Shown here in pieces: positions 5,792 through 64,000 of a stretch of 64,000 nucleotides of DNA. A program made the position numbers and the translations under genes. The first letter of the stretch is position 1. Each line of letters begins with the position of its first letter. The stretch comes from an uncultured Rhodospirillales bacterium (GTDB lineage Bacteria; Pseudomonadota; Alphaproteobacteria; CAZRBL01): assembly GCA_964598335.1 (NCBI GenBank), contig CAZRBL010000006.1:937-64936 (forward strand), written 5' to 3'. The notes under the pieces were generated by a model. That model was not told the DNA's origin. It did not search any database and saw nothing but the letters and a program-made list of their open reading frames with translations.

Positions 5792-7441
5792 ATGACCTCT
5801 GATTTTCTTTGTGTGCCGCTCGGCGGTGTCGGCGAGTTCGGCTGTAACCTGACGCTTTACGCCTATGATGATCGCTGGCTGGCGATCGATTGCGGCATGG
5901 GCTTTGCCGATGGCGAGATTCCCGGCGTCGACATCACCTTGCCCAATCCCGCTTATCTCGTCGAACGCCGTGACAGGCTCGAAGCAATTGTCCTCACGCA
6001 TGCGCATGAGGACCATATCGGCGCGGTCGCGCATCTCTGGCCGCAGCTGCAATGCCCGGTCTACGGCACCGCGTTCGTTCTGGAGTTGATGAAGCGCAAG
6101 CTCGCCGAGAAAGGCCTTGTCGACAAGGTGCCGCTGCGTGAGTTTGCGCCCGGCGGTTCGCTGACGCTGGGGCCGTTCGGCATAACCTTTGTCACGGTCA
6201 CCCATTCGACGCTCGAGCCCAACCTGCTGCTGATCGAAACCGAGGCGGGCAGGGTGGTTCATTCGGGCGACTGGAAGCTCGATCCCGATCCGGTTGTCGG
6301 CGAGGTTACCGATATCGATGCGCTCAAGCGCATCGGCGAGGGCGGAGTCGACGTTCTGATCGGCGATTCGACCAATGCGATGACACCTGGGCGTTCGGTT
6401 TCCGAGGCCGCGGTGCAAGAGGCGCTGACGGCGGAGTTCGGCAAGCACGGGCAGCGCATCGCCGTGTGCTGCTTTGCGTCCAATATCGCGCGGCTGGAGA
6501 GTATTGCGCGGGCCGCCCAGGCGCATGGGCGACATGTCGCGCTGGTCGGGCGTTCGCTGTATCGGCTATCGGATGCGGCGCGCGCCTGCGGCTATCTCGA
6601 CGACATTCCGGAGTTTATCGACGATCGCGATGCGGGCTTGATCCCGCGCGACAAAATTGTGCTGGTCTGCACCGGCAGCCAGGGCGAGCCGCGGGCGGCG
6701 ATGCCGCGCATTGCGGACAATACGCATCGTCATATCAAGCTCGATCCCGGCGATGCGGTGATGTTTTCATCCCGCGCCATTCCCGGCAATGAGCGCGAAA
6801 TCCTGCGCATGCAAAATCGCCTGATCGCGCAGGGGATCAATGTCGTCACCGATCACGAGGCGCCCATCCACGCGTCCGGCCATCCCGCACAGGATGAATT
6901 GCGCGACATGTTCGGCTGGCTCAAGCCGAAGGCACTCATTCCGGTGCATGGAGAGACGGCGCATTTGCACGCCCATGCCGCTTTGGCCCGGGAATGCGGC
7001 ATCGCCGCGCCGCTGATCCCGGAAAACGGCAGTGTGATACGTCTCAACAATGGCGATGTCCGCGAGATCGACCGCGTCGAGACCGGCAAGCTGGCCATTG
7101 ACGGCAGCCAGGTCATCGCCGCCGATAGCGACCTGATCAGAACGCGATTGCGGATTGCCGAGACGGGCAGCGCCGTGATCACCCTGGTCATGGATAAAAA
7201 GGGACGGCTGCTGGCCACGCCGCAAGTCTCTTCCCCCGCTTTGTTCGATCAAACCGAGGAGGATGACGACAGGCTTGCGGCCATAGAGGATGCGGTCCAG
7301 ATGGCGATCGAAGCCCTGCCGAGCGCGGAGCTGCGCAGCGACGGAGCCGTCGAAAGCGCGGCGAGCCGGGCGCTGCGGCGCGAGACCTTCGAAATGCTCG
7401 GCCGAAAACCGCTCACCGAAATTCATCTGGTGCGCGTCTGA
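5792..7441 (+). CDS. rnj: Ribonuclease J (metallo-beta-lactamase/beta-CASP RNA-metabolising family)
   Basis: LGGVGEFGCN and HAHEDHIGA metallo-beta-lactamase motifs; 549 aa. Confidence 0.85.
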   Translation: MTSDFLCVPLGGVGEFGCNLTLYAYDDRWLAIDCGMGFADGEIPGVDITLPNPAYLVERRDRLEAIVLTHAHEDHIGAVAHLWPQLQCPVYGTAFVLELMKRKLAEKGLVDKVPLREFAPGGSLTLGPFGITFVTVTHSTLEPNLLLIETEAGRVVHSGDWKLDPDPVVGEVTDIDALKRIGEGGVDVLIGDSTNAMTPGRSVSEAAVQEALTAEFGKHGQRIAVCCFASNIARLESIARAAQAHGRHVALVGRSLYRLSDAARACGYLDDIPEFIDDRDAGLIPRDKIVLVCTGSQGEPRAAMPRIADNTHRHIKLDPGDAVMFSSRAIPGNEREILRMQNRLIAQGINVVTDHEAPIHASGHPAQDELRDMFGWLKPKALIPVHGETAHLHAHAALARECGIAAPLIPENGSVIRLNNGDVREIDRVETGKLAIDGSQVIAADSDLIRTRLRIAETGSAVITLVMDKKGRLLATPQVSSPALFDQTEEDDDRLAAIEDAVQMAIEALPSAELRSDGAVESAASRALRRETFEMLGRKPLTEIHLVRV

Positions 7442-7692
7442 TGACCGTCTTCACCGGCATCATCGTCTATTTGCTGATCTGGTGGGTGATGCTGTTTGCC
7501 GTGCTCCCCTGGGGCATAAGGCATTCCAGGCCGGAGCCCGGTAACGCGCCGAGCGCCCCCGAAAACCCTCGTATTCTGAGGAAGTTTGCCATTACCAGCG
7601 CCGCATCGGCCCTGGTCTGGCTGATCGTCTTCGCGATCATCGAGGCGGAGGTGATTTCCTTCCGCGAGATCGCTGAGCAATGGCATCGGTGA
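7441..7692 (+). CDS. Small two-TM membrane protein, DUF1467-like
   Basis: 83 aa, MTVFTGIIVYLLIWWVMLFAVLPW hydrophobic N-terminus; ATGA-coupled to the rnj stop. Confidence 0.5.
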   Translation: MTVFTGIIVYLLIWWVMLFAVLPWGIRHSRPEPGNAPSAPENPRILRKFAITSAASALVWLIVFAIIEAEVISFREIAEQWHR

Positions 7693-8234
7693 GCTTGCCC
7701 GCAAAACCGCCTGCGCATTATTGCGATATCGCACCGGGCCATCCATGGCATGGCCCCTATCACGACACCGAATATGGTTTTCCGGTCCGCGGCGAGGCGC
7801 AGCTTTTCGGGCGCTTGGTATTGGAAATCAATCAGGCCGGGCTTTCCTGGTTGACGATCCTCAAGAAGCGTAGGGATTTTGACCGCGCCTATGATGGCTT
7901 CGCGGTCGATAAGGTCGCCGCTTACGGCGCTGACGACACGAAAAGGCTGTTGCGGGACCCCGGCATCATCTGAAACCGGTTAAAGATCGCTGCCGCGATC
8001 CATAATGCGCAGCAAATCAGAACCATGCGGGAGAGCCATGGCGGTTTCGCCGCCTGGCTTGATGCACATCATCCGTTGCCGCTGACCGGCTGGGTAAAGC
8101 TGTTCAAGTCCGTGTTCAAATTCACAGGCCGCGAGATTACCAATGAGTTTCTGATGTCTACCGGCTATCTCCCGGGTGCCCATCGAACGGATTGTCCTGT
8201 TCATCCCGAGATCCTGGCATGCGACCCGCCCTAG
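7680..8234 (+). pseudogene. tag: DNA-3-methyladenine glycosylase I (Tag) interrupted by a single in-frame TGA at 7971-7973
   Basis: ORFs 7680-7973 and 8025-8234 are in the same frame. Read-through gives ...RDPGII*NRLKIAAAIHNAQQ...KSVFKFTGREITNEFLMSTGYLPGAH..., colinear with the Tag HhH/zinc-ribbon fold (E. coli has IIRHRGKI here, so Arg becomes stop). Confidence 0.75.
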
Positions 8235-8378
8235 GCTTCTGTCTAAAAAACAGGCAGTCTGGCGGTTTATGCTGCGCTCGCGAAAAAGAGCCTTGTTCAC
8301 TGCCCGCGTAATAAGCATCGTCCGCCTATCGGAGTGCGATCTTCGATGACCGCTTGGTGGCGATTCCTCCCTAGACTT

Positions 8379-8409
8379 GGGCCGTACGGTTTCGTGCGGC
8401 CCTTTTTTT
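8379..8409 (+). terminator. Rho-independent terminator (GGGCCG-12 nt loop-CGGCCC + T7)
   Basis: Perfect 6-bp GC stem 8379-8384/8397-8402 followed by TTTTTTT 8403-8409; downstream of tag. Confidence 0.55.
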
Positions 8410-8461
8410 GCCCGTATTGCGCGGTCGGCTGGCGTTTACCCGTTTTTCGCTTCGCCTGGCT

Positions 8462-15631: not shown

Positions 15632-15821
15632 ACACACCTACCGTCTGGGCGACAGACTTGCTTTTGACGGCGAGTCTGATGTATCGCCCGCATCATTCCA
15701 CACGCGGGATGTACGCTGGCCGCAGAATTTCGGTTCTGTGGGCGGCGTTCCGGTGTCCGGTCCTCAGTTGATGGGGATCGGGCTTGGTCCCGCGGAGGCT
15801 AAACCGGAAAACGAGGATAAA

Positions 15822-16685
15822 ATGACCGTTCCGACCTTTACCATGCGCCAGCTGCTCGAAGCCGGCGTCCATTTCGGCCACCATACGCGCCGCTGGAACC
15901 CCAAGATGAAAAGCTTCATCTTCGGTGTTCGCAATAATGTTCACATCATCAATCTCGAAGTCACGGTACCGATGCTGTACCGCGCCCTCGAAGTCGTCAG
16001 CGAAACCGTGTCTAACGGCGGCCGCATCCTGTTCGTCGGCACCAAGCGTCAGGCGGCGGACAAGATTGCCGAAACCGCCCAGCGCTGCGGCCAGTATTAT
16101 GTCAATCACCGGTGGCTCGGCGGCATGCTGACGAACTGGAAAACGATTTCCAATTCGATTAAGCGCCTGAAGGACCTGAATGAGCAGCTTGCCGAAGGGC
16201 AGGAGGGGCTCACCAAACGTGAAATGCTGACGCTGACCCGCGAGCGCGACAAGCTCGACCGGGCGCTCGGCGGCATCATGGAGATGGGCGGCCTGCCCGA
16301 TTTGCTGGTGATCATCGACACCAACCGGGAAGCCATTGCTGTCCAGGAAGCCAACAAGCTGGGTGTGCCGGTCGTTGCTGTCGTCGATAGCAACAGCGAT
16401 CCGGACGGTATCGATTTCCCGATCCCGGGCAATGACGATGCGCTGCGCGCCATCGATCTTTATTGTGACCTGTTCAGCCGTGCCGTGTTGTCGGGTCTCG
16501 AGCAGGAACTGGTGGCAACCGGAACCGATATCGGTGCGCTTGAGGAACAGCCTGCAGAGGAACTTCCGAACGACGCCGCTGCGGCGAGTGACGCTGCCGA
16601 AGCTGAGCAAGCCGGGCAGCCCTCCGCCGAAGAGTCGGCTGATGCGCCGGGCGCGGAAGCGACCGAGCAAAAAGAAAACGCCTAA
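15822..16685 (+). CDS. rpsB: 30S ribosomal protein S2
   Basis: [23 protein letters not shown]2 signature with acidic C-terminal tail; RBS GGAAAACGAGGA upstream. Confidence 0.93.
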
Positions 16686-56932: not shown

Positions 56933-57417
56933 GCGGCGAGCTCTGACAGCATCGTCAGCGCCTGACGGAGCGACGCCTCGCGCACGGCGCTACGGTCACC
57001 GCTGAACACCGTGTGGTAGGCGTTGGCCTCATCGCCTCTGCGCTGAGCGGCGAAATGGACCAGCCCTACCGGCTTGTCCGCACTGCCGCCGCCGGGTCCG
57101 GCGATACCGGTTATTGATACCGCAAGGTCGGCGCATGAATTGTCCAGCGCGCCCGAGACCATAGCTCGGGCCGTCTGCTCGCTGACTGCGCCATACATAT
57201 CGAGGACCGCTTGCGGGACACCCAGCAGGCTCGTCTTGGCTGCGTTTGAATAGGTTACGAAACCGCGATCGACGACATCCGATGATCCCGCGATTTCAGT
57301 CAGAACTGCGGTGACCAGTCCGCCGGTGCAGGATTCCGCGGCGGCCAGCATCAGACCTTTTTCGCGGCACTGCGCCAGTAAGGCTTCGGCCGCGGTCAAG
57401 ATATCTTTGTCCATCAT
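56923..57417 (-). CDS. CinA C-terminal domain protein (nicotinamide-nucleotide amidohydrolase PncC-like)
   Basis: [23 protein letters not shown] motif; 164 aa. Confidence 0.8.
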
Positions 57418-58568
57418 CGCGGCATCGTGACGGTAACCACGACCTGGGCCGCGATGCCTTCACGCCGACCGGTAAAGCCGAGCTGTTCCGTGGTCGTCGC
57501 CTTGATGTTCACGCGGTCCTCAGTGATGCCGAGCAGATCGGCGACGCGGCTTTTCATTGCCGGTTTATGCGGGCCGATTTTCGGCCGTTCACATATCAGG
57601 GTGATATCGGCATTGACCAGGACGGCATCGCGGGCGGACAGCAGACCGACGGCATGGGTTACAAAGGCAGCGCTGTCCGCACCTTTCCATTGCGGATCGG
57701 TAGGCGGAAAATGATCGCCGATATCACCACCGCCAATGGTCCCGAGCATCGCATCGACCAAAGCATGCAGGCCGACATCGGCATCGGAATGACCGGCAAG
57801 GCCCTTGTCATGCGGCACCGCCACGCCGCACAACATGACATGGTCACCGGGGCCAAAGGCGTGCACGTCAAAGCCTGTACCGGTGCGCGTTTCGCCGGCC
57901 AACAGCGCTTCAGCCATCGCCAGATCCTCCTGTGTTGTAATCTTTAGATTACGCGCCGCGCCGTCAACGAGTTGCACCGGCATGCCGGCGGCTTCGGCGA
58001 GCGCCACATCATCGGTAAAATTCTTATCGGTGAAGGCGCGATGGGCGCGCAGGATCGCCGTCAAGGGAAAGCCCTGCGGGGTCTGCATCCTCCACAGACC
58101 GTCCCGTTCAACCAGCCCTGCAGCATAGCCGTCTTCATCGCCGCGCCGCAGCGTGTCACCGACGGGCAAAGCGGCAGCGGCGCCCTGGTTATCTGAGAGT
58201 GCGGCAAGTACGCGGGCGATCACGGCCCGCCCCGGGAATGGACGCGCGCCGTCGTGGATAAGCACGTAATCGGGCGGGGCGTCCGAGGCGGCCAGCGCCT
58301 CAAGACCCAAATGCACGCTTTTCTGTCGGCTATTGCCGCCCGGTACCGGCAGCGGCAGATCCAGACCGGCTGTCGCCTCCCGATAGTGATCGGAAAACGC
58401 CGGATTGATGACGAGCTGAATCGAAAGATCGGCCGGATGGTCGATGAAGGCCTGAACGGTCCGGCGCAACACCGCCATGCCGCCGAGCCGGTGATACTGC
58501 TTGGGCAGGGCGGCGCCGAAACGGCTGCCCTGACCGGCGGCAACAATGAGCGCAGCACAACGCCGCAT
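57414..58568 (-). CDS. ispDF: Bifunctional MEP cytidylyltransferase / MEcPP synthase
   Basis: [14 protein letters not shown] (IspD) and C-terminal GFDVHAF...HSDADV (IspF); ATG at 58568, track ORF extended to 58682. Confidence 0.88.
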
Positions 58569-58718
58569 CGATGTCTCCAGTTTGTGGTATCGCTTCGAAA
58601 GCGCTGGGGTGGCGATAATTGCGACGAAATGCAAGCGGCCCAAGACCGCGCGATGCTTGACGTTTGCGCAAGGATTGCTCATCCATTAGGCAGTCTCAGC
58701 TCGCTATCGGCTCTCTTC

Positions 58719-59837
58719 ATGACATCTGCTCCGCAATTCTCCGTCGCTGCAGAACGGCTGGCTGATTTGCAGGCAAATCTTGCGCCCGGAACGGATCTGG
58801 GGCGCGACCTGGCGGCAATCTTCATTGCTTTGCCGCAGCCATTGCTGGTCGTCGACGCCGCCGACCGGTTGCGTTTGATCAACCCGGCTGCGGAAGAATT
58901 CTTGCGTCACAGCAAACGCGCCATGGAGGGCGTCGATCTGGCCCGCGCTCTGCCCGAAGCCGGCGGATTGATTGACGCTGTCGCTCAGGCGCGCAGCGCC
59001 GATGGCGCTGTGACTGTGCATGACGCCGCACTTGCCGGGCCCGGCCTGCCGTCCGGCGGCATCACCGTTCGCGCCTGCCCGGTCGCGATTGAAGCAGGCG
59101 CGGTGCTGATCGAAATTCAGCGACAGCGCGATGTCGCCGATGAGGCGCTAGACCAGACCGCCGAGGGCCTGAAAGCGGCATCGATTGCAAGCGTTCTGGG
59201 ACATGAGATACGCAACCCGTTGCTAGGCATTCGCGGTGCGACCCAATTGCTCGACGGTGCTCTGGCCGACAAGGACCGCCATTTGCTGCAGCTTATCCGC
59301 GATGAAGCCGACCGCATCGCCGCCCTGATCGCCGATATTGAAAAGCTGACCGGCGGCGAGGCCGTTTCCACCGAGGCGCTGAACATCCATGAGGCCGTGC
59401 TGCATGCGAAAGCGATCGCCGAAGCCGGTGTCGCCGCCCATGTCCGCATCGTTACCCGTTTCGATCCGTCCTTGCCCCCAGCGGCGGCCGACCGCAGCAG
59501 CCTGATCCAGGCGATCCTCAACCTGATCACCAATGCCGCCGAAGCGCTGCCGCAGAACGGGGGCGAAATCACGCTGCGAACCGCCTGGCGACAGAGCCTG
59601 CAAAGCCGACACCCGCAGCCGCTCCTTATTTCGGTCAGCGATAACGGCCCCGGTATTCCGGCGGCGATCAGACATACGGTATTCGAGCCATTCGTCTCCA
59701 CCAAGGCCGGCGGGCGCGGCCTCGGCCTTGCCATGGTCGCGAGGATCGTCGCCGCGCATGGCGGCACTGTCGCCCTCGATCCGCTTGATCGCGGCACACG
59801 TTTTACCATCGGACTGCCGTTATGGAGTGAGGCATGA
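58719..59837 (+). CDS. ntrB: Nitrogen regulation sensor histidine kinase NtrB
   Basis: PAS N-terminus, H-box LGHEIRNPLLGIRGATQLL, N/G1/G2 boxes intact; track start 58254 is an extension. Confidence 0.85.
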   Translation: MTSAPQFSVAAERLADLQANLAPGTDLGRDLAAIFIALPQPLLVVDAADRLRLINPAAEEFLRHSKRAMEGVDLARALPEAGGLIDAVAQARSADGAVTVHDAALAGPGLPSGGITVRACPVAIEAGAVLIEIQRQRDVADEALDQTAEGLKAASIASVLGHEIRNPLLGIRGATQLLDGALADKDRHLLQLIRDEADRIAALIADIEKLTGGEAVSTEALNIHEAVLHAKAIAEAGVAAHVRIVTRFDPSLPPAAADRSSLIQAILNLITNAAEALPQNGGEITLRTAWRQSLQSRHPQPLLISVSDNGPGIPAAIRHTVFEPFVSTKAGGRGLGLAMVARIVAAHGGTVALDPLDRGTRFTIGLPLWSEA

Positions 59838-61222
59838 GCGGGCAGGAAACGGTTCTGATCGCCGATGACGACAAGAGCATCCGGACAGTGCTTGCCGAAG
59901 CGCTGGCGCGATACGGCTATCGGACACGCACGACCGGCAACGCCTCGACGCTTTGGCACTGGTTGTCTGACGGCCATGGTGATGTGGTGGTCGGCGATGT
60001 TCTGTTGCCCGATGAGAGCCTGCTGAAATTGCTGCCGCGCATGCGGCGCCTGAGGCCGGAGTTGAATTTTATCCTGATGAGCGCGCAAAGCCCGCATACA
60101 GCGATCGCCGAGGCGCAGGAAAAGGGTGCCTTCGACTTCCTGCCCAAGCCCTTCGATCTCGAAAAGCTGGCAGTGACCGTTGACGCGGCCCTGAAAGCAC
60201 CGCCGGCTGCGCCGAAAACCAGGCCGACAAGACCGGCGGCTCTCGCCGGCACGTCCGCCGCCATCGATGCCGTTCGCGGCGCTGTGGCCAGGCTGTGCCG
60301 GCTCGATCTGCCTTGCCTGATCGACGGCGCCGTCGGCAGTGGACGCCTCACCGCGGCCAAAACCATGCATGAACAGGGCAACCGCGCAGGCGGACCCTTC
60401 ATCGTTATCGAGTGCGAGAGCGTCGATGCTGCGTTATTTCTCGACCAGATCGCCCGCGCTGACGGCGGCACCCTCATTCTGCAGTCGATTGAGACATTGA
60501 GCAGCAGTGCTCAGGAATCCCTGAGCCGCGCCATACAGGACAGCCAGACAACCGATGTCCGTTATATCGCGACCGCCACGCCGGATTTGGGGGACCGGGC
60601 GCGCCAGGGCCTCTTCCGGCAGGACTTGCGACACCGGCTGAGTGCCAGCGTGATGTCGATGCCGCCACTTGCCGAAAGAAGCGGCGATTTACAGGCAATT
60701 GTCGAGGCTCTCGCCGCAGACGCGGAAAAGGACGGCCTGCCGGCGATCAGCTTGGATCAGGGCGCGCTCGATGAATTGTCCGCCCGTCTTCCCTGGGACC
60801 AATTGCGCGGCCTTGACCGGCTGGTGCGCCGGCTCGCGACCCTGTCCGAGCGCCCCGCCGTCGACGCATCAGTGATGCGCCGTGCTCTGGCCGCCGAAAG
60901 CGGTACCCAGGAACAGGCGCCCGCCGCCAACGGCCATGGTGACCTTCGGCGGTCCGAGGAGCAGGCACCCCAGGGCTTGGCAGATATCGTCGAACGGCAT
61001 TTGACGGATTATTTCGCCGCTCATGGCGAGGATTTGCCGCCGCCCCAGCTTTATAGCCGGATCATTCAGGAGGTTGAGCGGCCTTTGATGACCCTGACGC
61101 TCGAGGCGACACGCGGCAATCAGTTACGCGCCGCCGAGGTTCTGGGGCTCAATCGCAATACCCTGCGCAAAAAGATTCGCGATCTTGATATTCAGGTTTC
61201 ACGCCGTCGCAAAGGTGGTTGA
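59834..61222 (+). CDS. ntrC: NtrC-family response regulator with degenerate sigma-54 activation (AAA+) domain
   Basis: Receiver (DDD, D55, K105) and C-terminal Fis-type HTH (RGNQLRAAEVLGLNRNTLRKKIRDL) are intact; the central domain lacks GAFTGA, has Walker A GAVGSGRL and Walker B GGTLILQSIE. Confidence 0.8.
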   Translation: MSGQETVLIADDDKSIRTVLAEALARYGYRTRTTGNASTLWHWLSDGHGDVVVGDVLLPDESLLKLLPRMRRLRPELNFILMSAQSPHTAIAEAQEKGAFDFLPKPFDLEKLAVTVDAALKAPPAAPKTRPTRPAALAGTSAAIDAVRGAVARLCRLDLPCLIDGAVGSGRLTAAKTMHEQGNRAGGPFIVIECESVDAALFLDQIARADGGTLILQSIETLSSSAQESLSRAIQDSQTTDVRYIATATPDLGDRARQGLFRQDLRHRLSASVMSMPPLAERSGDLQAIVEALAADAEKDGLPAISLDQGALDELSARLPWDQLRGLDRLVRRLATLSERPAVDASVMRRALAAESGTQEQAPAANGHGDLRRSEEQAPQGLADIVERHLTDYFAAHGEDLPPPQLYSRIIQEVERPLMTLTLEATRGNQLRAAEVLGLNRNTLRKKIRDLDIQVSRRRKGG

Positions 61223-61310: not shown

Positions 61311-63593
61311 ATGGCTGTCGACGCCGCCACACAGCTACCCGAAGAAGCGCCGCCGCCACGGCGCAATTTGACCCGGCGGTTTTCCGTCTGGGCCGAGCGC
61401 TCGGGCGCGCTCAACTGGCTGGTGCTGGTGCTGGCGGCCGCGGCTCTGATTTCCGGCGGCGCCACCTATTACGTGCTCACGGGCAGCTCCGCTTTCGGCT
61501 CCGACCCGGATGTCGTTTACTGGCTGCTGGTTCTCGACCTTGCCATTCTGCTGCTTTTGGTGGCCCTGGTTGCACGCCGTGTCGTGTCGCTTTGGCTCCA
61601 GGCGCGGCGGCAGCAGGCCGGTGCCCGGCTGCACGGCCAGATCGTCCTGGTTTTCGGGATTCTTGCCAGCCTGCCGGCGATTCTGATGACCGTTTTTGCC
61701 GGCCTTTTCCTGTCGGTCGGCCTGCAATCCTGGTTCAACGACAAGGTCGCCACCGCGATTAATGAATCGGTTGCTGTCGCACGTGGCTATCTCGACGAAC
61801 ACAGCCAGACCATTCGCGCCGATCTGCTGGCCATGGCCAATGACATCAACCGCGAGCGGCCGCGCCTGATCGGCAATCCGGTCGGTCTTGACCGGCTGAT
61901 GCGGACTCAGACGCTGTTCCGTAACCTCAATGAGGCGGTCATCTTCGACGGCCGCGGCGCGGTCATCGCTCAGGCCGGCCTAAGCTTCCAATTCGACATT
62001 CAACCGCCATCCGAGCAGGATTTCGCGCGTGCATCGGTTGGCGCTGTCGTGCTGGATACCGAAGAGGGAGAGGACCGGGTGCGAGCGATGATCAAGCTCG
62101 ACCGCTTTCTAGACAGTTATCTGATGATCGGTCGCAGCGTCGATCCCCTGGTGCTGGGTCACGTTGAGAGCACCGAGGAGGCGGCGGCGCGTTATGAACA
62201 GCTGCGCGGCCGCAGCGGCGATTTGCAGGTCGCCGCAACCCTGATCTTCATGCTGGTCGGTCTATTGTTGGTTCTCGCTGCGGTATGGGCCGGCCTTGGT
62301 TTTGCCGAGCGGCTGGTCAGACCGATCCGCTCTCTCATCGTTGCCGCTGAAAAAGTGCGCAGCGGCGATCTGTCAGCGCGCGCCCTGGGCACCGCCAGCC
62401 GAGACGAGCTCGGCAATCTGTCGCGCGCCTTTAACCGCATGACGCGGCAATTGGCCGAGCAGCGTGACAAGCTGGTCGGCGCCAATGTCGAGCTCAATCA
62501 GCGACGGCAGTTTATCGAAACCGTTCTCTCCGGTGTTTCAGCCGGCGTTATCGGTCTCGATGCCAAGGGGCAGGTGACGGTTGCCAACCCGTCGGCGCCG
62601 CAAATGCTGGGTCTTGAGGAAACCGAGATCATCGGCACCGATCTCCGTAAAATTGTCCCCGAACTCACCGAGCTTCTTGCCGCCTCGGACAGACGCCCGG
62701 AAGAAGTGCAGGAAGCTCAGATCGCCATTGCCGTGCCGGGCATCGGCCAGCGGATTTACCTGTTGCGGATCGCCAATGACCGGCGTTTCGGTCAGGCGCC
62801 GGGCTATGTTGTCACCTTCGATGATATCTCGGAGCTGCTTTCGGCACAGCGCAAGGCAGCCTGGGCCGATGTTGCGCGCCGCATTGCGCATGAAATGAAG
62901 AATCCGCTGACTCCGATCCAGCTCGCCGCAGAGCGACTGCAGCGGCGCTATCAGCCGCAGATCAACAAAGATCCGGACACATTTATCGCCTGTACGGACA
63001 CGATTATCCGCCAGGTCGGCGATATCGGCCGGATGGTCGATGAATTTTCCGCCTTTGCGCGGATGCCTCAGGCAGTGCTGAAGCCTGAAAGTCTCGACTC
63101 CATCTGCCGCGAAGCGGTCGTTCTGCAGCGCGAGGCCAACAGGGATATCGCCTACGCGATGCATCTTCCGGAACAGCCTGTTCTCGCCCGCTGCGACCGT
63201 CGTCAGATTGGCCAAGCCTTGACCAATCTTCTGCAAAATGCCGCCGATGCCATCGCCGCCCGCCCTGAGCGTTTTGCCTGGGATCCGCCGTGCATAGACT
63301 TGCATCTGTTCGAGACCGATGACGGCATTACCGTTCTGGTTGCCGATAACGGCCGCGGGCTGCCGCAATCGGGCCGCACCGAGTTGACCGAACCCTATGT
63401 CACAACCCGGGCCAAGGGCACCGGGCTGGGCCTCGCCATCGTCAAGAAAATCATGGAAGACCATGACGGTAAGCTGCAATTGGCTGACCGCATGGTTGAT
63501 CTTGAAGGGCAGGGATGGGGCGCGCTGGTGTCCCTGCATCTGCCGCGGAGCCTGTCCGCCGACTCGTTAACCGCCATGCCGGATGTAGCCTAA
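61311..63593 (+). CDS. ntrY: Sensor histidine kinase NtrY
   Basis: Multi-TM N-terminus, HAMP, PAS, H-box IAHEMKNPLTPIQLAAERL, HATPase. Confidence 0.85.
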   Translation: MAVDAATQLPEEAPPPRRNLTRRFSVWAERSGALNWLVLVLAAAALISGGATYYVLTGSSAFGSDPDVVYWLLVLDLAILLLLVALVARRVVSLWLQARRQQAGARLHGQIVLVFGILASLPAILMTVFAGLFLSVGLQSWFNDKVATAINESVAVARGYLDEHSQTIRADLLAMANDINRERPRLIGNPVGLDRLMRTQTLFRNLNEAVIFDGRGAVIAQAGLSFQFDIQPPSEQDFARASVGAVVLDTEEGEDRVRAMIKLDRFLDSYLMIGRSVDPLVLGHVESTEEAAARYEQLRGRSGDLQVAATLIFMLVGLLLVLAAVWAGLGFAERLVRPIRSLIVAAEKVRSGDLSARALGTASRDELGNLSRAFNRMTRQLAEQRDKLVGANVELNQRRQFIETVLSGVSAGVIGLDAKGQVTVANPSAPQMLGLEETEIIGTDLRKIVPELTELLAASDRRPEEVQEAQIAIAVPGIGQRIYLLRIANDRRFGQAPGYVVTFDDISELLSAQRKAAWADVARRIAHEMKNPLTPIQLAAERLQRRYQPQINKDPDTFIACTDTIIRQVGDIGRMVDEFSAFARMPQAVLKPESLDSICREAVVLQREANRDIAYAMHLPEQPVLARCDRRQIGQALTNLLQNAADAIAARPERFAWDPPCIDLHLFETDDGITVLVADNGRGLPQSGRTELTEPYVTTRAKGTGLGLAIVKKIMEDHDGKLQLADRMVDLEGQGWGALVSLHLPRSLSADSLTAMPDVA

Positions 63594-64000
63594 TGTCTTC
63601 TGAAACCGCCCCGGACATCCTGATCGTCGATGATGAGAGCGATATCCGCCTGCTGATCGCCGGCATACTCTCCGATGAAGGTTTTGAAACCCGCCACGCG
63701 GCAGACAGCCAGTCGGCGATGGAGGCGCTGAAGGGACGGCGCCCGAGCCTGGTGATACTCGATGTCTGGCTCGAAAACAGTGCCATGGACGGGCTCGAAC
63801 TGCTCAGCGAGATCAAGCAGAGCTGGCCCGGCGTGCCGGTCGTGATGATCAGCGGGCACGGCACGATCGAAACCGCCGTCGCTGCACTCAAGCGCGGCGC
63901 CTATGATTTCATCGAAAAGCCGTTCAAATCGGATCGTTTGATCCTGACCCTGAAACGCGCTTTGGAAGCGGCCAAGCTCGAGCGCGAGAATGCGGAGTTG
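63593..64000 (+). CDS. ntrX: Response regulator NtrX, 3'-truncated at window edge
   Basis: Own translation: MSSETAPDILIVDDESDIRLLIAGILSDEGFETRH...LDVWLENSAMDGLELL...GAYDFIEKPF; TAATG overlap with ntrY. Confidence 0.85.
   Translation, partial: MSSETAPDILIVDDESDIRLLIAGILSDEGFETRHAADSQSAMEALKGRRPSLVILDVWLENSAMDGLELLSEIKQSWPGVPVVMISGHGTIETAVAALKRGAYDFIEKPFKSDRLILTLKRALEAAKLERENAEL

Follow-up and report, generated by a model that had tools for sequence, protein, structure and literature searches.

An NtrC orthologue with a degenerate sigma-54-type AAA+ domain in the ntrBC-ntrYX locus of an uncultured Rhodospirillales bacterium

The ntrBC-ntrYX locus of an uncultured Rhodospirillales bacterium encodes an NtrC orthologue whose central AAA+ domain departs strongly from that of its relatives. 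The locus lies in a 64-kb stretch of DNA, hereafter the window (64,000 nucleotides; positions 937 to 64,936 of contig CAZRBL010000006.1, assembly GCA_964598335.1). Here, pdhABC-lpdA-lipA-ratA-cinA is followed by ispDF, which diverges from ntrB, and then by ntrB-ntrC-ntrY-ntrX (Table 1). This is the usual alphaproteobacterial setting of these genes, and the flanking genes match those of the loci L004, L005, and L015. NtrC is the textbook activator of sigma-54-dependent transcription. A preliminary description of this DNA, made from its letters alone, had flagged positions 60242-60719, which correspond to codons 137-296 of the 462-codon open reading frame (ORF) of ntrC at 59834-61222 on the forward strand. 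The TGA stop of ntrB overlaps the ATG of ntrC as ATGA, and this overlap is kept both in the window and in the locus of its sister orthologue, a metagenomic protein designated P0002.

Table 1. Genes of the ntrBC-ntrYX locus and the domains and motifs of the NtrC orthologue, in window coordinates.
Feature	Coordinates	Strand	Basis or remark
ntrB, NR-II type sensor kinase, 372 aa	58719..59837	+	Pfam PAS, HisKA, HATPase_c; top NCBIfam match NR(II)
ntrC orthologue, degenerate AAA+, 462 aa	59834..61222	+	Pfam, TIGR01818, alignment to canonical NtrC
Receiver domain, residues 7-115	59852..60178	+	Pfam Response_reg, E 4e-20
Degenerate sigma-54-interaction-type AAA+ domain, residues 136-339	60239..60850	+	Pfam
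Walker A remnant GAVGSGRL (canonical GESGTGKE)	60326..60349	+	Lys to Arg
Site of 19-aa deletion, L1 loop with GAFTGA gone	60434..60463	+	LFLDQI/ARAD, junction 60451/60452
Walker B remnant GGTLILQSIE (canonical GGTLFLDEIG)	60464..60493	+	DE to QS
Site of 10-aa deletion of L2/pre-sensor-I insertion, with altered sensor I	60530..60589	+	Junction QDSQ/TTDV
Arg-finger helix FRQDLRHRL, R262 and R268 kept	60614..60640	+	Alignment
Sensor II region QLRGLDR (canonical NVRELEN)	60800..60820	+	Arg325 kept, neighbours changed
Fis-type helix-turn-helix (HTH_8; RGNQLRAAEVLGLNRNTLRKKIRDL), residues 412-449	61067..61186	+	Pfam HTH_8, E 7e-12
ntrY, well conserved	61311..63593	+	NtrY_N-HAMP-PAS-HisKA-HATPase_c
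ntrX, 5' part, receiver domain	63593..64000	+	Rest beyond window end

The orthology of the gene with ntrC is supported by synteny, by a better match to the ntrC family model than to that of NtrX, and by its nearest homologues. TIGR01818, the NCBIfam equivalog model for ntrC, covers residues 7-451 with model positions 1-463 and scores 297 bits, which is below its cutoff of 558.6 bits, whereas the NtrX model NF051870, with a cutoff of 600 bits, gives 146.8 bits. Among full-length homologues, canonical NtrC proteins of the Rhodospirillales type come closest, at 43-48% identity. Colinearity with NtrC, as claimed in the preliminary description, is thus borne out by an end-to-end model match together with synteny. 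That description had also allowed that the gene might be an NtrX-like paralogue. This identification was rejected, since the gene lies upstream of ntrY, the ntrC model outscores that of NtrX, and a separate ntrX begins at 63593. Apart from ntrX, no other bacterial enhancer-binding protein (EBP) is encoded in the window. The longest ORFs of ispDF (57414-58682, reverse strand) and ntrB (58254-59837, forward strand) overlap head to head, and comparison with the sister locus places the likely true starts at Met38 of ispDF (about 58571) and at 58719 for ntrB.

The domain between the receiver and the helix-turn-helix (HTH) is still recognized by two Pfam models of sigma-54 activators, PF14532 (Sigma54_activ_2; residues 139-279, E 4e-19, 69.7 bits) and PF00158 (Sigma54_activat; E 6e-17, 62.3 bits), each above its cutoff, the latter match being split into two stretches. 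Alignments with sets of 7 and 38 canonical NtrC proteins, which are 45-48% identical to the window protein, display the following losses, and by these alignments the residues for sigma-54 contact and ATP hydrolysis are lost. In Walker A, the Lys is replaced by an Arg whose codon, CGC, lies at least two substitutions from either Lys codon. The L1 loop is gone through an in-frame deletion of 19 residues that takes out ESELFGHEKGAFTGA, including GAFTGA, and extraction by columns of the hidden Markov model (HMM) yields LFLD followed by ten gaps. The Walker B core reads LILQSI in place of LFLDEI. A second deletion, of 10 residues, removes EGEYTxVGGR (L2), and the sensor I strand that follows reads VRYIATATPDL rather than the canonical VRIIAATHRDL, with Thr changed to Ala. 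The N-terminal GRS motif, too, has no Arg and reads GTS in the window protein and GNS in its sister. Altogether the protein has 462 aa, compared with 478-486 aa in canonical NtrC.

The preliminary description had read a Walker A motif without Lys, a jump at ECESVDAALFLDQIARADGGTL where the GAFTGA loop should be, the altered Walker B motif, and a protein shorter by about 20 aa, all of which are present as described. A wrong reading frame, which it had named as a possible refutation, is excluded: canonical NtrC aligns to the window in one frame and as one high-scoring segment pair (59834-61213), and a search through all six frames of the window found no peptide resembling GAFTGA or ESELFG. Its statement that every hallmark of EBPs had disappeared was too strong. 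The P-loop glycines G165, G168, and G170, both Arg fingers, and the sensor-II Arg are all kept, and an AAA+ fold is still predicted. Canonical and GAFTGA-less homologues alike have Arg at the R262 position without exception and at the R268 position almost without exception. Likewise, the divergence described for the sensor-II/Arg-finger region holds for the residues around the sensor-II Arg, where G322D, E326G, and E328D are found in the sister as well, but not for R262, R268, and R325 themselves. The sensor I change (A247T/T248A) is another derived state common to the window protein and its sister.

The domains on either side of the AAA+ domain are intact. Across the 38 canonical proteins of the alignment, the receiver residues D11, D12, D13, D55, S83, and K105 are invariant and are all found here, with the codon of the phospho-acceptor Asp55 at 59996-59998. 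The acidic pocket, the VVVGDVLLPDE and PKPFDL strings, and the C-terminal Fis-type HTH had been correctly recognized at the outset, and 34 of the 39 canonical-invariant C-terminal positions are kept by both degenerate orthologues. The partner kinase NtrB, first described as fully functional in appearance, has indeed kept all of its catalytic boxes without change relative to canonical NtrB (H, HEIRNPL; N, NLITNAAEA; G1, DNGPGI; F, FEPFVSTK; G2, GRGLGLA), but it evolves as fast as NtrC, being 47% identical between the window and the sister locus, where NtrY is 71% identical.

Among 5.8 billion protein clusters, the only high-identity match was the window protein itself, a singleton, and the best 120 full-length hits comprised 118 canonical NtrC proteins (with GAFTGA, Walker A Lys, and Walker B DE), the window protein, and P0002. 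The latter, 468 aa long and 46% identical, comes from metagenome assemblies, where its gene lies on a 318-kb contig (locus L001) in the order pdhBC-lpdA-lipA-ratA-cinA-ispDF, then ntrB-ntrC-ntrY-ntrX-trkA...hfq-hflX, as in the window. For the sister, the ENA accession is ERZ10759711, with contigs at about 9.8x coverage. P0002 also lacks GAFTGA and carries IPHL in place of LDEI, while Walker A, GQPGTGKH, keeps its Lys. A comparison of orthologues for similar degeneration, which the preliminary description had suggested, therefore recovers the same class of losses in a syntenic gene. The NtrX of the sister locus (L001, 13731-15155) has Walker A GAPGTGKE, Walker B LLLDEI, and the usual NtrX L1 without GAFTGA. 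Regarding the host lineage, housekeeping proteins point to a position near the Azospirillaceae and Rhodospirillales. PyrG of the window is approximately 75% identical to that of Arenibaculum, Nitrospirillum, and Azospirillum, and 82% identity is reached with a protein that shares metagenome sample and coverage with P0002.

An exhaustive HMMER search of 1.84 billion representatives, with a profile built from both degenerate AAA+ domains, gave 419 bits for P0002, 363 bits for the window protein, and at most 180 bits for the next single-domain hits. Across these representatives, the group consists of the two proteins only, and no closer relatives for measuring selection on short branches were found. 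Of the top 150 profile hits, 54 are representatives of NtrC size, and a census of these identified 25 without GAFTGA, in which Walker B is often degenerate; named sources of this GAFTGA-less set include Hyphomonadaceae, Caulobacteraceae, Phenylobacterium, Kaistia, Myxococcaceae, and Ca. Puniceispirillaceae. All GAFTGA-less homologues examined keep the P-loop glycines, the Arg fingers, and the sensor-II Arg. Three of the 54 lack the Walker A Lys, namely the window protein (Arg), P0154 (Arg), and P0229 (His). P0154 (L016, 1100-2458; JGI metagenome 3300029585) reads GERGTGRE at Walker A and LMLASV at Walker B and has no GAFTGA. It was rejected as a third degenerate NtrC orthologue, as it is an orphan receiver-AAA-HTH regulator without linkage to ntrB.

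Divergence between the window and the sister locus varies from gene to gene and from domain to domain. LipA is 81% identical, with a ratio of nonsynonymous to synonymous substitution rates (dN/dS) of approximately 0.11, LpdA is 76% identical, NtrY 71-72% (dN/dS approximately 0.11), IspDF 64%, and NtrB 47% (approximately 0.29). NtrC as a whole is 46-49% identical, with approximately 61% in the receiver (dN/dS approximately 0.24), 35-37% in the AAA+ domain (approximately 0.40), and 72% in the C-terminal region containing the HTH (approximately 0.13). These ratios, obtained by the Nei-Gojobori method on the single window/sister pair, are rough owing to the large divergence of this pair and to the linker, whose value is similar to that of the AAA+ domain. 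Four-fold degenerate sites are near saturation, with an identity of 0.37-0.47 where 0.34 is expected from composition. Among canonical Rhodospirillales NtrC proteins, the AAA+ domain is 83-92% identical, the receiver 72-89%, and the C-terminal region 64-83%. The C-terminal region of the window protein, at 65-71% identity to canonical NtrC, falls within this range, whereas its AAA+ domain, at 36-38%, is its least conserved domain, although in canonical NtrC it is the most conserved.

Even so, the gene is very probably not a dying pseudogene, and it is maintained in two lineages. The chance that 204 random codons of the same composition contain no stop is 0.006, and the other two forward frames hold five stops each. 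A stretch drifting neutrally over such divergence would hold neither this 204-codon frame open in two lineages nor a tblastn E value of 2e-32. At 147 positions of the AAA+ domain, canonical NtrC is conserved to 90% or more, and these were classified by their fate in the two proteins. Both lineages keep 48 of them, the window protein alone keeps 20, and P0002 alone keeps 19. At 14 others, among them those of the sensor I swap and of G322D/E326G/E328D, the two share an identical derived residue, and 46 have changed in both but differently. Thus, a core third of the domain stays fixed, and the combination of shared derived residues with differing changes indicates that degeneration predates the split of the lineages and continued in each. 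The preliminary description called the AAA+ core decayed, a word that implies neutral decay, but purifying selection still acts on the domain, and the predicted fold is kept.

An AlphaFold2 model built on a 40-sequence alignment has a mean predicted local distance difference test (pLDDT) score of 78, with values of mostly 81-97 in the receiver, 55-91 in the AAA+ domain, and 84-92 in the HTH. The model preserves the beta-alpha-beta core of the AAA+ domain and its beta1-5 order, with loops L1 and L2 cut back. Searched against the PDB with Foldseek, the model is matched best by Brucella NtrX (5m7p), Aquifex NtrC1 and NtrC4, VpsR (7v2b), LuxO, and FleQ, and isolated AAA+ domains of EBPs superpose with template modelling (TM) scores of 0.71-0.75 at 2.5-3.4 Å. 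The AAA+ fold is therefore predicted to be retained.

There is an established class of EBP homologues that have no GAFTGA and work with sigma-70, and it includes TyrR, DhaR, HupR, and VpsR (PMC3162934) as well as PhhR, HsfA, and NtrX (PMC6158489). The window protein shows the trait of this class, an EBP-type AAA+ domain without a functional GAFTGA. In NtrC of the Rhodobacterales, a large L1 deletion removes GAFTGA (PMC10274813). The protein of R. capsulatus activates the housekeeping polymerase and requires ATP binding though not hydrolysis, as relayed in that source from Bowman & Kranz 1998, and also requires phosphorylation (PMC10274813). It resembles the window protein as an NtrB-partnered receiver-AAA+-HTH regulator with a large deletion of L1 and GAFTGA. 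Two Rhodobacterales-like proteins, P0136 and P0153, appeared in the profile search. However, Rhodobacterales-type proteins keep the Walker A GESGTGK and mostly the Walker B DE (LFLDEI in P0136), while the window protein has a Walker A Arg, QS in Walker B, no L2, and other deletion boundaries. Its identity to them is 36-42%, compared with 45-48% to canonical Rhodospirillales NtrC, and 34-42% to the GAFTGA-less groups. From this difference in identity and from the differing deletion boundaries, it follows that the loss here is a separate event.

Caulobacter crescentus NtrC is likewise an NtrC orthologue without GAFTGA, in which the phospho-Asp matters. It has an 8-residue deletion and serves as both activator and repressor at sigma-70 promoters (PMC10274813; PMC12421884), and its function depends on K178 of Walker A and D235 of Walker B (PMC10274813), the equivalents of which are both replaced in the window protein. 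V. cholerae VpsR, also a receiver-AAA+-HTH protein without GAFTGA and among the top structural matches, has a non-catalytic Walker B (ND), shows no detectable ATPase activity, and needs no ATP to open a sigma-70 promoter (PMC6158489). Unlike the window protein, VpsR is no NtrC orthologue, has no NtrB partner, and is driven by cyclic di-GMP (c-di-GMP). Binding of c-di-GMP in the manner of FleQ or VpsR was set aside as unlikely for the window protein, which lacks the N-terminal Arg of the GRS/LFRS-type motif. Brucella abortus NtrX (5m7n/5m7o/5m7p) is the best match in both sequence and structure among solved structures, and is an atypical GAFTGA-less EBP acting as a repressor (PMC6158489). However, NtrX belongs to another orthologous group, has its own gene downstream here, and retains Walker A and B, as the sister NtrX illustrates. 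Canonical NtrC, or NR(I), shares with the window protein its end-to-end colinearity, locus, receiver residues, and HTH, but the window protein lacks all sigma-54-coupling and catalytic motifs and scores 297 bits where the cutoff is 558.6.

A further case is found in the SAR116 clade. Cluster P0213 of SAR116/Ca. Puniceispirillaceae has 131 members, exemplified by the gene at 6001-7437 of locus L015 (GCA_965660495.1), where the order is ispDF, then dusB-ntrB-ntrC-ntrY-ntrX. These proteins are syntenic NtrC orthologues without GAFTGA and with NH in Walker B (FINHIE). They differ from the window protein, to which they are 32-36% identical, in keeping the Walker A Lys (ADIGSGKQ), in having dusB upstream, and in retaining more of L2. 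Judged by its motifs, P0213 is an NtrC that lost its ATPase independently, and it comes from a marine clade of high abundance; no description of it was found in the literature searched.

The reading favored here, to which a probability of about 0.62 is assigned, is that the NtrC orthologue of an undescribed Azospirillaceae/Rhodospirillales-like lineage has turned from a sigma-54 AAA+ motor into a sigma-54-independent, non-hydrolyzing response regulator. We infer that it neither contacts sigma-54 nor hydrolyzes ATP and that it acts at sigma-70-type promoters. Its function would most likely be that of a phosphorylation-gated DNA-binding regulator with the AAA+ domain as a scaffold. NtrB would phosphorylate the receiver at Asp55, and by way of the retained AAA+ fold this would change how the protein oligomerizes or its conformation; the fold would serve as a structural or oligomerization scaffold and might still be a nucleotide-binding module. 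The Fis-type HTH would then bind NtrC-type sites and either repress or activate promoters of the housekeeping RNA polymerase, in a manner comparable to that of R. capsulatus NtrC, Caulobacter NtrC, V. cholerae VpsR, and Brucella NtrX.

Several points weigh against this reading. The AlphaFold2 model leans toward a canonical fold, since its alignment consists almost wholly of canonical NtrC proteins. Constraint on the AAA+ domain is weak and patchy, as the domain evolves nearly as fast as the poorly conserved linker (proportion of nonsynonymous differences, pN, 0.45 and 0.48, respectively). Loss of the Walker motifs is not automatically tolerated in the subfamily, given that Caulobacter NtrC needs both (PMC10274813). 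The rapid evolution of NtrB may reflect co-evolution of kinase and regulator or, alternatively, relaxation of the whole NtrBC module, and the in-frame stop in a nearby tag-like gene (see below) shows some gene decay in this genome or assembly.

Some of these points are what would be expected of a non-functional relic, in which the NtrBC module is no longer used, ntrC is becoming a pseudogene, and the ORF is a leftover. The low identity of the AAA+ domain to canonical NtrC fits such a relic, as do the fact that the degenerate pair, at 36%, are no closer to each other than to canonical NtrC, the speed of NtrB, and the interrupted tag gene nearby. This explanation is nonetheless improbable, because a full-length ORF and the ATGA coupling persist in both lineages despite near-saturated synonymous sites, the receiver phospho-site and HTH are as conserved as in working NtrC proteins (dN/dS 0.13-0.24), and the in-frame deletions fall precisely on the surface loops L1 and L2 while the core strands stay. 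More serious, though still unlikely, is the alternative that the protein binds ATP without hydrolyzing it, binding being what makes it oligomerize and, from upstream sites, activate sigma-70 RNA polymerase. The retained P-loop glycines, Arg fingers, and sensor-II Arg, the Walker A Lys of the sister, and the R. capsulatus precedent, in the form relayed by PMC10274813, all speak for it. Opposed to it are the loss of the Walker A Lys and of both Mg2+-coordinating acidic residues of Walker B, as well as of the sensor I Thr and the N-terminal GRS Arg. Mutants in which the Walker A Lys is changed to Arg often still bind nucleotide, which again counts in favor of ATP binding. With a view limited to 64 kb of the genome, the protein might also be a diverged paralogue with a new function, a canonical sigma-54-dependent NtrC being encoded elsewhere. 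The chances of this are slim, considering that the gene occupies the ancestral ntrB-ntrC-ntrY-ntrX locus with the same flanks as in L004, L005, and L015, that ntrX is the only other EBP gene in the window, and that the sister is arranged alike. An artefact of sequencing, assembly, or reading frame can be practically dismissed, in view of the single-frame alignment, the lack of any hidden motif, the many independent substitutions together with two in-frame deletions, and an independently assembled metagenomic orthologue with the same class of changes.

GAFTGA-less NtrC proteins are already known from Rhodobacter and Caulobacter, as is the ATPase-less VpsR, so the advance offered by a sigma-54-independent NtrC at this locus is incremental and introduces no new principle. 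What sets it apart is that an NtrB-linked NtrC has lost its ATPase residues too, the completeness of the loss being unusual. The GAFTGA-less NtrC proteins studied previously still need their ATP site, for binding in R. capsulatus and through both Walker motifs in Caulobacter, as far as they are covered in PMC10274813. By contrast, the NtrC proteins of the window, the sister, and SAR116 are kept by selection without catalytic residues, which suggests a role of the AAA+ domain without ATP turnover, such as a scaffold for oligomerization or for relay of the phospho-signal. Such proteins are annotated as sigma-54-dependent or sigma-54-interacting regulators, and inferences on nitrogen control or sigma-54 regulons drawn from these labels would be wrong in these lineages.

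A broader proposal, offered tentatively, is that the whole NtrBC system has been rewired in a family-level lineage comprising the window organism and one metagenomic sister. NtrC would be a nucleotide-independent 'pseudo-AAA+' protein that assembles on DNA through phosphorylation only, with NtrB rapidly co-evolved and the head of the dusB-ntrBC operon lost, perhaps at the same time as sigma-54 dropped out of nitrogen control or disappeared from the genome. If this were true, the protein would mark the end point of a repeated alphaproteobacterial path from canonical NtrC through GAFTGA-less, ATP-dependent forms to an ATPase-dead scaffold, and would provide a natural test of an EBP AAA+ ring that can neither hydrolyze ATP nor touch sigma-54.

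In Alphaproteobacteria, the first gene of the nifR3-ntrB-ntrC operon is normally dusB (nifR3). The stretch between ispDF and ntrB contains no dusB in the window (58572-58718) or in L001 (8712-8882), and none was found elsewhere in the window, L001, or L013, whereas the gene is present in the canonical locus L004 (7897-8883) and in the SAR116 locus L015 (3828-4826). Loss of dusB coincides with the strongest degeneration of NtrC. The sigma-54 consensus TGGCAC-N5-TTGC has seven matches with at most one mismatch in the window, where 5.5 are expected, and none is tellingly placed. A scan upstream of ntrB and ntrC returned no sigma-70 promoters, and a comparison of the ntrB upstream regions of the window and of the sister locus revealed short, unshared palindromes and no shared palindrome or NtrC box.

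A small RNA of the MmgR/suhB type (alpha-r8) is encoded at 8344-8416 on the forward strand, with a CCUCCC anti-Shine-Dalgarno sequence and a terminator (Rfam RF00519, 44.9 bits). In S. meliloti, mmgR is activated by NtrC (PMC7143759), and the mmgR of the window is thus a candidate target of NtrC; no TGGCAC-N5-TTGC match with at most one mismatch lies upstream of it. Close by, at 7689-8237 on the forward strand, is the tag-like gene for a 3-methyladenine DNA glycosylase, which has an in-frame TGA at 7971-7973 (GII*NRLKI). The Pfam domain Adenine_glyco (E 1.6e-35) spans this break, and the stop replaces what is presumably a conserved Arg of the tag family. The tag-like gene is either a pseudogene or affected by a sequencing error. 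No tRNA genes were found across the window. An rpsB leader (Rfam RF01815, 45.6 bits), ordinary in its features, is located at 15699-15822 on the forward strand, upstream of rpsB-tsf.

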